The notes under the pieces: generated by a model
What the model saw: only the letters and a program-made list of their open reading frames with translations
Database searches by the model: none
What the model was told of the DNA's origin: nothing
Program-made: the position numbers and the translations under genes
Part shown: piece by piece, positions 2,884-8,159 of the stretch
How the letters are laid out: each line of letters begins with the position of its first letter
Position numbering within the stretch: the first letter of the stretch is position 1
Virus record (IMG/VR): IMGVR_UViG_2671180283_000021
DNA length: 9,920 bases
Strand: one strand, 5' to 3'
Source of the DNA: a virus
Taxonomy: Duplodnaviria > Heunggongvirae > Uroviricota > Caudoviricetes

Positions 2884-3762
2884 TCAGACTGCAAGATCCA
2901 AGGGAAGATCAGAAATATCCTTTAATCTTTTACCATTAACCATCACGGAAAGCATGTCAGCTGCATCGCTGAGCCCCAGTATTTCAACTGCTGATATAAG
3001 TTCATAAAGCGCAAAATGATACACGCAATCTATATCACCAGTACCAAGAGCAATAGACGCCAGACGACTTGGAGTAGGCTCAGCAGTAACAACCATTACA
3101 TGAGGGAGATTTCCCTTACGGTTGCGAATAAGATTTAATGCCTCAGAACGAGCATTCTGGGCCCGGTCGCTTCTTATTGTCCATTTGCAGGAAATACTTG
3201 CGTGTAATATTGGTTTCCCACCATTCGAACTCCTGAGAGCTGACATGCGGGTAACAGAATCATCCACCAGTAATTCAGGACTGTTGATAACTTGATCACA
3301 TTCAGGTTCTCTTTCAACAATAATATCTGGTGAAATCGTATAATCACTCCCCAGTGCAGCAGCTAGCTGAGGATTACTTTTTGCAGCACTATCCAATGCT
3401 ATAAGATGGGCATATTGTTCATATTTAGCTATCTCTAATCTGTTTCTACCAGAAACCTGATGTACATTCCATTTTCCAGGGCGTAAGTGGCTGAGTTTAA
3501 AAAAGGTTTTTTCTATAAACTCTGCGCAGATACTCTCAAACTGATTACCAGATGTTTGCCCTGCAACACGTTCACCAATCGTTTCAGCCTGCAAGAAGCG
3601 AGCAATTTCTCTTGCTATAGCTTTACTGTTTTTGTTACTGCTATCTGCGTTACTAACAACTCCGGCAGTATTAATTGTGAGCGTATTCAGTAACAATTGG
3701 GCATGAAACTCCTTTCTGGCTTCAGCAAAACCAACTATGCTGTCAACCAAATCTCCATTCAT
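2884..3762 (-). CDS. Putative type II restriction endonuclease (PD-(D/E)xK fold), partner of the adjacent C5-methyltransferase
   Basis: Lies immediately downstream of the methyltransferase. The ATG at 3762 is 13 nt after the methyltransferase stop and is preceded by AGGAAA. Candidate catalytic motifs are SPDIIVERE and SCK, with a Glu 14 residues after the Lys, a spacing I recall from the Cfr10I/NgoMIV-like family. The supplied ORF extends to 3897 but that portion overlaps the methyltransferase by 122 nt. Confidence 0.6.
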   Translation of the reverse strand: MNGDLVDSIVGFAEARKEFHAQLLLNTLTINTAGVVSNADSSNKNSKAIAREIARFLQAETIGERVAGQTSGNQFESICAEFIEKTFFKLSHLRPGKWNVHQVSGRNRLEIAKYEQYAHLIALDSAAKSNPQLAAALGSDYTISPDIIVEREPECDQVINSPELLVDDSVTRMSALRSSNGGKPILHASISCKWTIRSDRAQNARSEALNLIRNRKGNLPHVMVVTAEPTPSRLASIALGTGDIDCVYHFALYELISAVEILGLSDAADMLSVMVNGKRLKDISDLPLDLAV

Positions 3763-3775
3763 TTCTGGATTTCCT

Positions 3776-4900
3776 TCAGGCTGCTTGACTATTCTTACTG
3801 ATGTTATTCTTATACCGTCCCTGCAAAACTCCATACACATATTGTGCGATTTTTGCTGCAAATAGCGGTGGAACAGCATTCCCGATCTGCTTTGCAATCT
3901 CAGTTTTTGAACCGGTAAAAATGAAATTATCAGGAAAAGACATTAATCTCGCTGCCTCACGATGAGTTATTGGCCGATCCTCTTCCGGATGTAAATATCG
4001 CCCTTTCTCCGGTTTGAAAAACTCAGTACGAATCGTTACTGAAGGTCTGTCCCACCACAGACGTCCAAACAAATCGGTCCCTCCAGATTTCTTTTTTAGC
4101 CAGCACGCCGGGGTTATATCAGGTCTTTTTTTCTGTAAATCGAAACGGTTACCTCCTGGTGGAACCGCTTTATATCGCTCCAGAGAAACAGGTGTGGGAT
4201 TACGCCCAAAATGTAAGTTCAGCGGAGGAAGTTCATTACGAATATCAGTTCCAACAGGAGCAGGTAAGTCACCAATTGCATCACGCGTACAGACCCATTC
4301 AGGCAAAGCGACATCCTTATCAGGGGAACGATGCGTTGGTGCTGGCGGGAACGCCGGAATACTATGCACATCGAAGAGTTCTCGTTTGATACCGATTGCT
4401 ATCGTTCGTTTTCTTGTCTGAGGTACTCCATAGTCAGCAGTATTCAACACCATTGGATTAAGCAGAATAAAGCCCATGGATTTCGCTCTAAACGTAATGT
4501 CCGCAAACTCATCGCTTATCAGCAATCCGGGGACATTTTCCATGACGAACATACAAGCCCTTGAACGCTCAATGACATCCATATAAGGCTCCCACAATGC
4601 TCTTCGGTGATCACCATAACGATTCTTATTCAATAAACTGAATCCCTGACACGGGGGGCCACCTATGACCACATCAGCCTCAGGAACAGTATTGCTGGAT
4701 GCCCACTCCTCAATATTTGCCTGAACTCCATGCAAACCAAAATTGGCATTGTAGGTATTTATAGCTGCAGCATTATTATCAATAGCAAGGATACTTTCAA
4801 AGTAGTCAGACATCTCTCCATGAAGAAAACCATAAGATAATCCACCTGCCCCACAAAAGAGGTCTATCACTCTGAATTTATTTAATTCTTTCATCCGCAT
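3776..4900 (-). CDS. DNA (cytosine-5)-methyltransferase
   Basis: 374 aa with canonical C5-MTase motifs: motif I FCGAGGLSYGF, motif IV GGPPCQGFS, motif VI ENVPGL, motif X QIGNAVPP. RBS GAGG lies 7 nt upstream of the ATG at 4900. Confidence 0.92.
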   Translation of the reverse strand: MRMKELNKFRVIDLFCGAGGLSYGFLHGEMSDYFESILAIDNNAAAINTYNANFGLHGVQANIEEWASSNTVPEADVVIGGPPCQGFSLLNKNRYGDHRRALWEPYMDVIERSRACMFVMENVPGLLISDEFADITFRAKSMGFILLNPMVLNTADYGVPQTRKRTIAIGIKRELFDVHSIPAFPPAPTHRSPDKDVALPEWVCTRDAIGDLPAPVGTDIRNELPPLNLHFGRNPTPVSLERYKAVPPGGNRFDLQKKRPDITPACWLKKKSGGTDLFGRLWWDRPSVTIRTEFFKPEKGRYLHPEEDRPITHREAARLMSFPDNFIFTGSKTEIAKQIGNAVPPLFAAKIAQYVYGVLQGRYKNNISKNSQAA

Positions 4901-4983
4901 CCATATGCCTCAGATTAATGTTGAGCGTCTTACAGGACGCGTAATGTTAACTGGGGCTTTCTCTATCTGCCTTTTGGTGTTCA

Positions 4984-5008
4984 TGCCTGAGGCAGACAGC
5001 CTCAGGCA
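4984..5008. other. Perfect 9-bp-stem hairpin (TGCCTGAGG-N7-CCTCAGGCA) in the QueH/methyltransferase intergenic region
   Basis: Inverted repeat read directly from the sequence, with no adjacent U-tract on either strand. Possibly a weak terminator for the QueH-like gene or a regulatory structure. Confidence 0.35.
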
Positions 5009-5078
5009 CCCGCAGCAATTCTACTTAACTCACGTCACCTCGCCAATATGAAATCAATCAGAAAGGTGATCCATAAAA

Positions 5079-5765
5079 TCACTCCTTCTCTTCTTTTCCG
5101 TAGTGGAGTTGGCCAATTTTGATAAGAGGGCGTCCCTGAGATTTGCGGTGTAGATTGGTATCGCGCAGAGAATACACACAGCCACAATATTCCTGCTGAT
5201 AGAATTTTTCGCGCTTGCTGATTTCAATCATACGGGACGAGCCGCCCTGCTTGCGCCAGTTATAATCCCAGTACACCATACCCGGATAATGCGCAACAGC
5301 TCGCCGCCCACACTCGTTAATCTGCTGCATATTTTTCCAGCGTGAAATGCCCAGTGAACTGCTGATCACACTGAAACCATTTTCAGCAGCGTACAACGCT
5401 GTCCGCTCAAAACGCATGTCAAAACACATGGTACAACGGATCCCCCTCTCAGGCTCCCATTCCATTCCTTTGGCACGTTCAAACCAGTTGTCGGTGTCGT
5501 AATCAGCATCGATAAACGGCACGCCGTGTTGTTCAGCAAAGCGAATATTTTCATCCTTACGAATTAAATACTCTTTCTGAGGATGAATGTTCGGGTTGTA
5601 GAAAAAGATGGTGTAGTCGATTCCCGAGGCCTGAAGCGCCTCCATCACTTCACCGGAACATGGAGCACAGCAAGAGTGCAGTAGTAGTTTGTTTGCCCCG
5701 TTTGGGAGCTCCAATTTAGGCCGTTTGAAATCAGCAATAGTCATAAATATTTTTATTGGGGTCAT
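5079..5765 (-). CDS. queH: QueH-like protein (DUF208 family; epoxyqueuosine reductase QueH homolog)
   Basis: 228 aa. N-terminal motif [11 protein letters not shown] plus further conserved Cys (RCTMCF, EYCGCVY), consistent with the Fe-S cluster ligands of DUF208/QueH as I recall them. No clear SD at either candidate start (5765 or 5744). Confidence 0.6.
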
Positions 5766-5918: not shown

Positions 5919-6344
5919 CTAGTAACGTCTAAAATACCTAACATTTCCTTGATAAAATGCCAGTACACGCTGCATAGCTTCGCTCTTCCGGCACTCGCGA
6001 CAGATTATGTTTAGGCGCCTGTCGTAGCGGCGTATTTCGCCGTCTGGTAATAGCCAGATAAGGTCCGGATCAACCACAGATGGTTTCTTCAGCTTTGCCC
6101 TTGAGAGTTTTTTGCGGGCGTTTTGCCAGTCCTTGCGCGCCTGCTCAGACGGGAATACTCCGTAACCGGAATTGTAAACATCACCACTGGCGGCCAGCTC
6201 CATGCATAAACGACCGACAGACGCATGACTGACACCAATTTCATCCGATAACTGCCGAATCGTGCCTCGTCCGTTAAGGCGTACGAATTCCACGATCAGC
6301 CCTTTAATTTTTTCCCGCTCTTCTTGTGTAAAAACTTTTGCCAC
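5919..6344 (-). CDS. Hypothetical protein with N-terminal winged-helix/HTH-like segment and basic C-terminus
   Basis: 141 aa with a GTG start at 6344 preceded by a strong SD (CAGGAGGG, 4-nt spacer). HTH-like segment GTIRQLSDEIGVSHASVGRLCMELAASGDV. C-terminal CRECRK and basic residues. No family recognised. Confidence 0.45.
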   Translation of the reverse strand: MAKVFTQEEREKIKGLIVEFVRLNGRGTIRQLSDEIGVSHASVGRLCMELAASGDVYNSGYGVFPSEQARKDWQNARKKLSRAKLKKPSVVDPDLIWLLPDGEIRRYDRRLNIICRECRKSEAMQRVLAFYQGNVRYFRRY

Positions 6345-6384
6345 AAGCCCTCCTGAAAATTACCTCATGACCAGAAATTAACAC

Positions 6385-7347
6385 TTACCCCCTGAAGCCC
6401 GGCGGAATTTCAGTGTCCGGTTCAGAAATGTGATTCACGCAACGCTGCGCAGGTGAACGCCCCAGGCGGATAACCAGTTCATCCCATTTTTCCCGGAGTT
6501 TTGCCGGACTCATGATGTTTTTTACCCAGAACGAATCCCGCTGGAGACGCCCAAACATTTCACAAATTTGTCTGTGAGTTCTGCCATCCAGCATCCGCAT
6601 TGTGCGAACGTCATTGGCCCATGCTGTCCAGTTGGGTTCTTTCGGTCTAGTGATCTCGCCATCATCGCTGGCCGCCTGCTCGTAAAGACTCACGATTCGT
6701 CCCCAGATCCACTGTGCGCACACCAAATCTTCCTGACTTCCCCACTGGCGTTTTTTCGCACTGAACACAACCGCGTCAGGGTGTCGGGTTAAAAAATCCT
6801 GTTCAGCCATCTGCGGGTCCGGTTGCGAAGCGTCCGGACAAGAAGATCTTTTATCTGACGGATCAGGTTTTAATACTGACGGATCGGGGTCAATCATCGC
6901 CCCCCTAATCGGCAGTTTTTTATCAACAGTTGATCCATCAAAATTTAACGGGTCAACCGTTGAGGGGTCAATATTTGACGGGTCAACTGTTAACGGGTCA
7001 TTTTTTGCCGGGCTAATTTTTCTTTTCGGTTTATATGACTCACGCGCCGCCGCCGCAGCTGCTTCGAGTTTTTCCACATTAAGCCGATAGATATTGCTTA
7101 CATTACGCCCACCGACCTTACGCTCTTCCTTCGTCAGCCAGCCCTCTTTCGCCAGTTCTGCAATAGCCGATTTCACTGTGGATTCACTTCTTGCACCGAT
7201 CTGACGCCGGATAGTTTCAATGGCAGGCCATGACACGCCCTCGTCATTGCTGTAGTCTGCAAGACGGGCCATAACCGCCACCCTGGATAAGATCATGCCG
7301 GTGAAGGCGCACCCTTCCCAGACAAGACCATGAAGCTTGCTGCTCAT
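6385..7347 (-). CDS. Phage replication initiation protein: N-terminal HTH (HTH_36-like), pentapeptide-repeat linker, C-terminal DnaT-like domain
   Basis: Preferred start is the ATG at 7347, preceded by GGGGG; the supplied ORF begins at a GTG at 7362. The N-terminus (VSWPAIETIRRQIGARSESTVKSAIAELAKEGWLTKEE) resembles the replication-initiator wHTH. The C-terminus (...VNHISEPDTEIPPGFRG) closely matches what I recall of the E. coli DnaT C-terminus (...SEPDSQIPPGFRG). Internal xxVDP repeats are encoded by the iterons. Confidence 0.7.
   Translation of the reverse strand: MSSKLHGLVWEGCAFTGMILSRVAVMARLADYSNDEGVSWPAIETIRRQIGARSESTVKSAIAELAKEGWLTKEERKVGGRNVSNIYRLNVEKLEAAAAAARESYKPKRKISPAKNDPLTVDPSNIDPSTVDPLNFDGSTVDKKLPIRGAMIDPDPSVLKPDPSDKRSSCPDASQPDPQMAEQDFLTRHPDAVVFSAKKRQWGSQEDLVCAQWIWGRIVSLYEQAASDDGEITRPKEPNWTAWANDVRTMRMLDGRTHRQICEMFGRLQRDSFWVKNIMSPAKLREKWDELVIRLGRSPAQRCVNHISEPDTEIPPGFRG
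6855..7040. repeat. Putative origin of replication inside the rep gene: direct repeats, four tandem 15-bp iterons and an AT-rich tract
   Basis: CTGACGGATC occurs twice (6855..6864 and 6876..6885). Four tandem 15-bp units run from 6947 to 7006 (AACGGGTCAACCGTT, GAGGGGTCAATATTT, GACGGGTCAACTGTT, AACGGGTCATTTTTT), with the core (C/G)GGGTCA at a 15-bp period. They are followed by an AT-rich stretch (TTTTTTGCCGGGCTAATTTTTCTTTTCGGTTTATAT). The layout resembles lambda ori within gene O. Confidence 0.6.
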
Positions 7348-7369
7348 AAAACCCCCGAACACCGTGCTT

Positions 7370-8129: not shown

Positions 8130-8159
8130 ATATTAGGTTTAGCCTAATGAAATTGTCAA
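8130..8159 (-). promoter_or_regulatory. Putative sigma70 promoter for the ydaS-ydaT-rep operon (rightward-operator analog)
   Basis: On the minus strand: -35 TTGACA (reverse complement of 8154..8159), an 18-nt spacer, and -10 TAATAT (reverse complement of 8130..8135). Overlapped by the palindrome ATTAGG-N5-CCTAAT (8132..8148). Confidence 0.5.

Follow-up and report, generated by a model that had tools for sequence, protein, structure and literature searches.

A Ren-family (DUF977/LygF) gene behind the replication initiator gene of a Rac-like lambdoid Escherichia prophage, and what it might do

In the stretch of DNA analysed here (the window, 9,920 nucleotides of the Caudoviricetes record IMGVR_UViG_2671180283_000021), a reading frame of 141 codons lies directly behind the gene of a phage replication initiator and in front of several genes that look like cargo. 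The question that the locus raises is to which of its neighbours the small protein belongs, and what it does for them. The original prediction had called the protein unrecognised, and that was mistaken: it is a DUF977/LygF protein, and NCBI already has an annotated entry of exactly the same sequence. The match to Pfam DUF977 (PF06163) has E=2.9e-28 and 99 bits, against a curated gathering cutoff of 22.1 bits, residues 1-135 covering positions 1-133 of the 134 in the model. The protein also fits PHROG 142, the 'Ren-like exclusion protein', with E=5.7e-43 across positions 1-113 of the 116 in that profile. The identical 141-residue protein (P0001) is named 'DUF977 family protein [Escherichia coli]' and occurs on 74 contigs. 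In phage records, including those of Rac-like and Stx phages, proteins 72-87% identical to it go by the names LygF, Ren-like exclusion protein or DUF977, and the window protein shows no essential difference from the DUF977/LygF proteins of Escherichia, Shigella and Salmonella prophages. NCBIfam offers no specific model for it, and lygF is also the name of a gene in difference region I of Salmonella Enteritidis. The window gene is thus almost certainly a Ren-family gene (Pfam DUF977, LygF, PHROG 142) of a Rac-like lambdoid Escherichia prophage.

The gene is an ordinary one, very common in prophages and already known. When its reading frame was compared by megablast with complete E. coli genomes, related genes were found in 4008 of 5426 (74%), in up to 5 copies per genome; about 76 of the 4019 matching records reach 95% identity to the window gene. 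Outside enterobacteria the family is narrow: among 1.84 billion representatives it accounts for 97 clusters at 50% identity, many being fragments. In itself the window gene therefore matters little, being a routine part of Rac-like and lambdoid prophages, and the Ren/DUF977 family at large is a long-standing known unknown. What is added here is that DUF977 is the long form of Ren, that its variation lies in discrete alleles of the recognition helix, and that the loader-less replication module of the window appears to be a deletion derivative. Among the related sequences are also five proteins of 580-850 residues (P0155, P0205, P0208, P0214 and P0217), in each of which 5-8 separate stretches match the winged-helix region of DUF977; they appear to be built from tandem winged-helix repeats.

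The reading frame itself is sound. A chance frame is contradicted by the Pfam score and by the frame remaining open in comparison with the allele of L002, the closest relative in a complete genome. The sequence upstream of the start on the minus strand is TTTTCAGGAGGGCTTGTGGCAAAAG, with AGGAGG at 6354-6349, 4 nt before the GTG. In relatives the corresponding codon is ATG, and the protein begins in the same way, with MAKVFTQEERE; because codon position and N-terminus are shared, the GTG start is taken to be right. The frame opens 40 nt past the stop of the O-like initiator gene, and it would be translated from its own strong Shine-Dalgarno sequence and GTG. The reading frame, its strong ribosome-binding site and GTG start, the N-terminal helix-turn-helix and the place directly after rep, all of which the original prediction had described, are confirmed by the sequence, by Pfam and PHROG and by AlphaFold2. 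The coordinates of the gene, of its parts and of the operon around it are collected in Table 1.

Table 1. The DUF977 gene, the parts of its product and the surrounding replication operon, listed in the direction of transcription (positions in the window)
Feature	Position	Strand	Basis and remarks
pR-like promoter candidate, TTGACA-18-TAATAT	8130..8159	minus	Between racR and the cro-like gene; consensus scan, 10/12
O-like replication initiator gene, same operon, directly upstream of the DUF977 gene	6385..7362	minus	phrog_391, E=2.5e-115; HTH_36
Array of ~15-nt iterons (TCAACnGTTGAnGGG) inside the initiator gene	6923..7012		Repeat search
40-nt spacer from rep to DUF977, with mini-ORF ATG AGG TAA	6345..6384	minus	Kept in loader-less loci
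Shine-Dalgarno sequence, AGGAGGG	6348..6354	minus	Read from the sequence; AGGAGG or AGGGGG kept in related loci
CDS of the 141-residue DUF977/LygF/Ren-like protein	5919..6344	minus	GTG 6344-6342, TAG 5921-5919; ORF list and sequence
Winged helix-turn-helix domain, residues 7-64 (H1, H2, H3 and a two-strand wing)	6153..6326	minus	AlphaFold2
Allelic (mosaic) segment, residues 33-49, helix 2 and recognition helix	6198..6248	minus	Allele A, SDEIGVSHASVGRLCME
Basic helix 4 and linker, residues 67-111, pI 10.4	6012..6146	minus	Absent from λ Ren; AlphaFold2, charge, gap in the Ren alignment
C-terminal family signature, residues 112-131, NIICRECRKSEAMQRVLAFY	5952..6011	minus	Common to λ Ren, NLVFKECRQSAAMKRVLAVY; BLASTP, hhalign

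From an alignment of 32 sequences, AlphaFold2 predicts helices at residues 7-24, 29-36 and 40-53, strands at 57-59 and 62-64 and a fourth helix at 67-84, with pLDDT of about 90. The linker that follows (residues 85-115) is poorly defined, with low pLDDT, and the C-terminal helix (residues 116-139) is predicted with pLDDT of 64-76. The pTM is 0.51, and this last helix has no confident placement relative to the rest. The protein is basic (pI 9.9 overall), its charge being concentrated in helix 4, the linker and the C-terminal helix. The winged helix is neutral (pI 6.6), and the recognition helix has few basic residues. In structure searches the fold matches regulators of the MarR, IclR and ArsR types, but the window protein has neither the dimerisation helices of MarR nor a ligand domain. 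Searches against the PDB and BFVD returned generic winged-helix matches only, none of which covers the C-terminal helix. The sequence also gave a weak match to the Zalpha domain of PKZ (E=0.006). Zalpha domains, which bind Z-DNA and Z-RNA, carry an Asn and a Tyr that are conserved in the recognition helix, together with a Trp in the wing; at the positions of the Asn and Tyr the window protein has G44 and M48, and no Trp is present in its wing (residues 55-66). A Zalpha domain was accordingly rejected, and the likeness to PKZ, judged from these residues, is at the level of the fold only.

The λ protein Ren (L001:2481-2771) is the member of the family with a genetic history, and the relation of the window protein to it was traced at several levels. 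Ren also matches PHROG 142 (E=1.6e-41, profile positions 11-110 of 116), and it gave no match to the Pfam DUF977 model. In BLASTP the window protein and Ren align in the C-terminal 20 residues only, with 60% identity and E=4e-7 (NIICRECRKSEAMQRVLAFY vs NLVFKECRQSAAMKRVLAVY). When a profile made from ten diverse DUF977 proteins was aligned by hhalign with one made from twelve Ren proteins, the match extended over 77 columns, including both the helix-turn-helix and the C-terminal motif, with 96.7% probability and E=3.4e-10. In the alignment, N112, C118, R119, S121, M124 and R126 are invariant across DUF977 and Ren. The two proteins share a winged helix at the N-terminus and, at the C-terminus, a helix of the form N-x-(I/V)-(C/F)-x-E-C-R-x-S-x-x-M-x-R-V-L-A-x-Y, and each gene comes directly behind the replication genes, on their strand. 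Ren, however, has 96 residues against 141 in the window protein, which carries between wing and C-terminal helix an extra basic helix and linker of about 45 residues, including GVFPSEQ..W and PDGEIRRYDR. The genes differ in their starts as well: that of λ ren overlaps the stop of gene P, whereas the window gene has its own Shine-Dalgarno sequence, a 40-nt spacer and no P gene upstream. A short DUF977 member of 115 residues (P0213) bridges the two forms, since in a cI-cro-cII-O-P module its gene and the stop of a Phage_lambda_P gene overlap, which puts it precisely in the place of ren. By these profile and motif comparisons the window protein is a homologue and longer relative of λ Ren. The suggestion that the gene occupies a Ren-like slot was therefore borne out, by the common PHROG, by the profile alignment and by the short DUF977 gene in the O-P-ren slot (L034).

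The place of the gene in the replication module is nearly constant. The window runs from racR, which is encoded divergently (RacR, NCBIfam E=1.2e-73), through a cro-like gene (YdaS), a cII-like gene (YdaT) and the O-like initiator gene with its iterons to DUF977. In more than 30 loci, the DUF977 or Ren gene comes last in the replication module and on its strand in every informative locus but one. The genes between initiator and DUF977 or Ren vary. In λ the order is O-P-ren; L034-L036 have O-P-DUF977 with the short form, start and stop overlapping; the Enterobacter loci L024 and L026 have O-P-Ren-like; L025 has O-DnaC-like-Ren-like; and L015 and L018 have rep-DnaC-DUF977. The order rep-DnaC-DUF1627-DUF977 is found in E. 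coli CEA106S, PhiR5_2, Shigella phage 75/02 Stx and Rac-SA53. The window, L004-L011, L017, L020, L022, L023 and phage HannyBb have rep-DUF977 without a loader, an arrangement that is present in E. ruysiae, E. albertii and Lelliottia. Since the slot is the same with a P-type loader, a DnaC-type loader or none, the protein more likely partners with the initiator, the origin or the host than with the loader. The one exception is a diverged full-length member (P0168, 37% identity), which lies at 4001-4426 of L032/L033 with no replication genes near; it could be a remnant or have been recruited independently. The neighbours of P0168 are colicin or pyocin, acetyltransferase and fimbrial usher genes.

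The genes on the 3' side are not constant. They vary among phages, with QueH in several architectures, rac19 and ead in Rac-SA53, and in PhiR5_2 and 75/02 Stx a DNA-binding gene on the reverse strand followed by a toxin-antitoxin pair of the HigBA or RelE type. This variability indicates that DUF977 is part of the replication module and not of the cargo. The proposal that it might regulate the downstream cargo genes fares badly for the same reason, as the gene moves with the replication module and the genes downstream differ from phage to phage.

The spacer of 40 nt that separates rep from DUF977 is kept in every Escherichia locus without a loader (E. coli, E. ruysiae and E. albertii) and in phage HannyBb. 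Its 5' part resembles the junction between rep and DnaC, including the DnaC start (gTCATGA), and its 3' part resembles the junction between the DnaC stop and DUF977 (TAGTTTCAGGAGG). From these short alignments, the spacer was probably left behind when a DnaC-like loader gene was deleted. The GTG start accompanies the loader-less junction, and ATG is found where DnaC or DUF1627 lies upstream. The loader-less module is apparently an old deletion derivative, and it is present in a complete deposited phage genome (HannyBb) as well.

The initiator gene upstream is listed in the window with 325 residues; the start used by relatives is the ATG at 7347, for a protein of 320 residues. Its product is 39% identical to the C-terminal part of λ O. 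The array inside the gene comprises about six iterons and an overlapping imperfect inverted repeat of 33 nt, and by analogy with oriλ in gene O it is probably the phage origin. Between the pR-like candidate and DUF977 no convincing terminator was found, and transcription from this candidate would, on induction, take in the cro-like gene, the cII-like gene, rep and DUF977 together. The last 21 codons of the initiator (6385-6447), ending …EPDTEIPPGFRG, give a weak match to the C-terminus of DnaT (NCBIfam NF002770, E=0.004), and the initiator homologue of Lelliottia has the same IPKGFRG ending. It is a speculation from this likeness that the C-terminus might serve, in modules without a phage loader, as a motif that recruits the host replisome (DnaB-DnaC).

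Variation within the DUF977 protein is unevenly distributed. Among 105 Escherichia homologues, column entropy peaks at residues 33-49, that is, in helix 2 and the recognition helix, and in the last ten residues, and residues 52-131 are almost invariant. Codon counts against L002 give a similar division: codons 16-51 differ by 8 synonymous and 21 non-synonymous changes, and codons 52-141 by 11 synonymous and 5 non-synonymous ones, with the frame open. Read from these counts, the pattern is one of mosaic allele replacement within a gene under purifying selection. At least four alleles of the recognition helix exist, namely SHASVGRLCMEL in the window, which is the less common one, TRYLMSVLAREL, SRASVGRLCIEL and SKTAVRRLSREL. 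The alleles do not co-vary with the type of initiator, loader or immunity: allele A is found in three rep contexts, and alleles A and B are found with the same rep gene. The identical protein, too, is present on eight loader-less contigs with two initiator types and three immunity types.

What such a protein might do has to be approached through λ Ren. According to work of Thomason and Court of 2022, Ren reportedly relieves the UV sensitivity and aberrant lysis that depend on RexAB. In λ, ren was defined genetically decades ago, in cited work from 1980, and on Rex+ lysogens the growth of ren mutants is poor, suppressors of the defect lying in O and P; bacterial two-hybrid assays showed interactions of RexA and RexB with both O and Ren; and a ren gene is said to be part of every initiator-helicase-loader module (bioRxiv 10.1101/2021.04.19.439022 supplement). 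A match between RexB and Ren in the yeast two-hybrid assay is also listed (PMC3224144). Ren has further been described as 'likely involved in DNA replication', and a role in the switch of replication mode has been suggested (Thomason et al., bioRxiv 10.1101/2021.04.19.439022). In the papers covered by our literature search, no biochemical function of λ Ren was found, nor any experiment on a DUF977 protein.

The reading that we prefer is that the window gene is the Ren-family end of the replication module and that its product acts in a Ren-like manner; taken as a whole, we put the probability of this explanation at about 0.6. The protein would be a small, non-enzymatic accessory factor, like Ren, acting at the replication-initiation complex of the phage through protein or DNA contacts, and it would keep Rex-type exclusion, exerted by resident prophages or by the host, from aborting phage replication. 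That the mechanism in particular is Ren-like, as homology and synteny suggest, is put forward tentatively, at somewhat below even odds. Pairwise similarity to Ren is limited to 20 residues and the Pfam model misses Ren, so that function may have diverged. The uncertain placement of the C-terminal helix in the AlphaFold2 model and the location of P0168 away from replication genes also count against the explanation. Within this explanation an anti-defence role is plausible by analogy with Ren and Rex exclusion only. The further idea that Ren and DUF977 form a widespread counter-defence family, in which the C-terminal helix anchors the protein to the initiation complex and the alleles record an arms race with Rex-like or other abortive-infection sensors of phage replication complexes, is doubtful at present. 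In the flanks of related prophages, Pfam lists contained no homologue of rexA or rexB, and neither the window protein nor λ Ren was matched by PADLOC; a reading of the protein as a defence factor in its own right, one of those the original prediction had raised, was dropped on the latter result.

The constant position of the gene could also be read as that of a pure replication accessory with no part in evading defence, a protein that binds the initiator, the origin or a component of the host replisome and tunes initiation, acting for example on the stability of the initiator, on recruitment of the helicase or on the change from theta to rolling-circle replication. The linkage to the initiator gene whatever the loader type or the downstream genes, the basic character of the protein (pI 9.9) and the views of Thomason et al. 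on Ren in DNA replication and in the mode switch all suit such a role. The alleles, however, vary without regard to initiator, loader or immunity type, which argues against recognition of a cognate origin or initiator by the recognition helix. In addition, λ ren is non-essential for growth on non-lysogens, which also weighs against a purely replicative function. We regard this alternative as unlikely, though worth keeping in mind. It has been proposed as well that a gene in this position might be a helicase loader, and in the loader-less modules the protein could be imagined to substitute for the missing DnaC-like or P-like one, as it comes directly after the initiator, with no loader gene, in the window and at least ten related loci including HannyBb. 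Yet near-identical proteins coexist with DnaC-like or P-type loaders, and Pfam and PHROG gave no match to Phage_lambda_P or to AAA+ proteins; the loaders of relatives were identified as proteins of their own. The C-terminus of the initiator, with its weak likeness to DnaT, may recruit the host DnaB-DnaC instead. Such a substitution is highly improbable, and the loader reading was given up.

The winged helix also invites comparison with sequence-specific transcription factors of the MarR or IclR type, which might act on early or nin-region genes or on the QueH, methylase and NgoMIV-like cargo. Besides the fold matches to MarR, IclR and ArsR regulators, discrete alleles of a recognition helix are typical of specificity switching in DNA-binding proteins, and QueH adjoins DUF977 in several architectures. 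Against this, the same alleles precede unrelated genes in PhiR5_2, in Stx phages and in Rac-SA53, and the winged helix is neutral with a recognition helix poor in basic residues. In the 153-nt spacer between DUF977 and QueH no promoter-like site was found on the coding strand, nor were repeated operator-like sites found near DUF977 beyond the iterons in rep. A transcription factor of this kind is accordingly quite unlikely, and the Ren-like accessory factor remains the reading that we prefer.

One functional result from a neighbouring gene calls for separate comment. In a screen, ydaW of the K-12 Rac prophage was found to block the retron-Sen2 toxin RcaT. YdaW was considered as a possible DUF977 protein and rejected, as K-12 YdaW (L028, NC_000913 1422752-1423312) is a truncated DUF1627 and the K-12 Rac prophage has no DUF977 gene. 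DUF1627/YdaW resembles DUF977 in being a small winged-helix protein of the same module, encoded often directly upstream, but it is a different family with two winged helices, and its gene is absent from the window. DUF1627 and the window protein show no BLASTP similarity, and they resemble each other only as helix-turn-helix proteins do in general (34% probability). Nor is DUF1627 a paralogue with the Ren motif, since the C-terminal motif of Ren is absent from it. Because YdaW is a DUF1627 protein, the retron-Sen2 result does not apply to the window protein, and annotations that equate a 'YdaW family' with LygF/DUF977 need care.

On the 3' side of DUF977 the window continues with QueH and then, by Pfam, a C5 cytosine methyltransferase and an endonuclease of the NgoMIV family. 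QueH (epoxyqueuosine reductase) lies at 5079-5765 and follows DUF977 also in L002, L012, L015, L020 and L029, phage HannyBb being included among these cases; it looks like a moron that recurs at the head of the nin-region position. The methyltransferase (Pfam E=4e-54) and the endonuclease (1e-126) form a complete type II restriction-modification pair at 2884-4900 on the minus strand, which PADLOC lists as MTase_II and REase_II. As listed, with a TTG start and 337 residues, the endonuclease frame overlaps the 3' end of the methylase; relatives are annotated with 292 residues. Between QueH and the methyltransferase, at 4831-5011 on the minus strand, Rfam places a sok antitoxin RNA (RF01794) with 61 bits against a gathering score of 59. 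No convincing Hok-like frame was recognised near it in the window; in related phages a MokW-like or Hok/Gef gene is annotated near DUF977. The likeness to related prophages ends at about 2533, where the relatives carry a small ORF, DUF968, RusA and Q. At 31-2447 on the minus strand the window has three reading frames of 141, 116 and 537 residues, which by eye only resemble tnpA, tnpB and tnpC of the IS66 family. With these IS66-like frames in place of DUF968, RusA and Q, the late-gene side of the prophage is seen to be interrupted.
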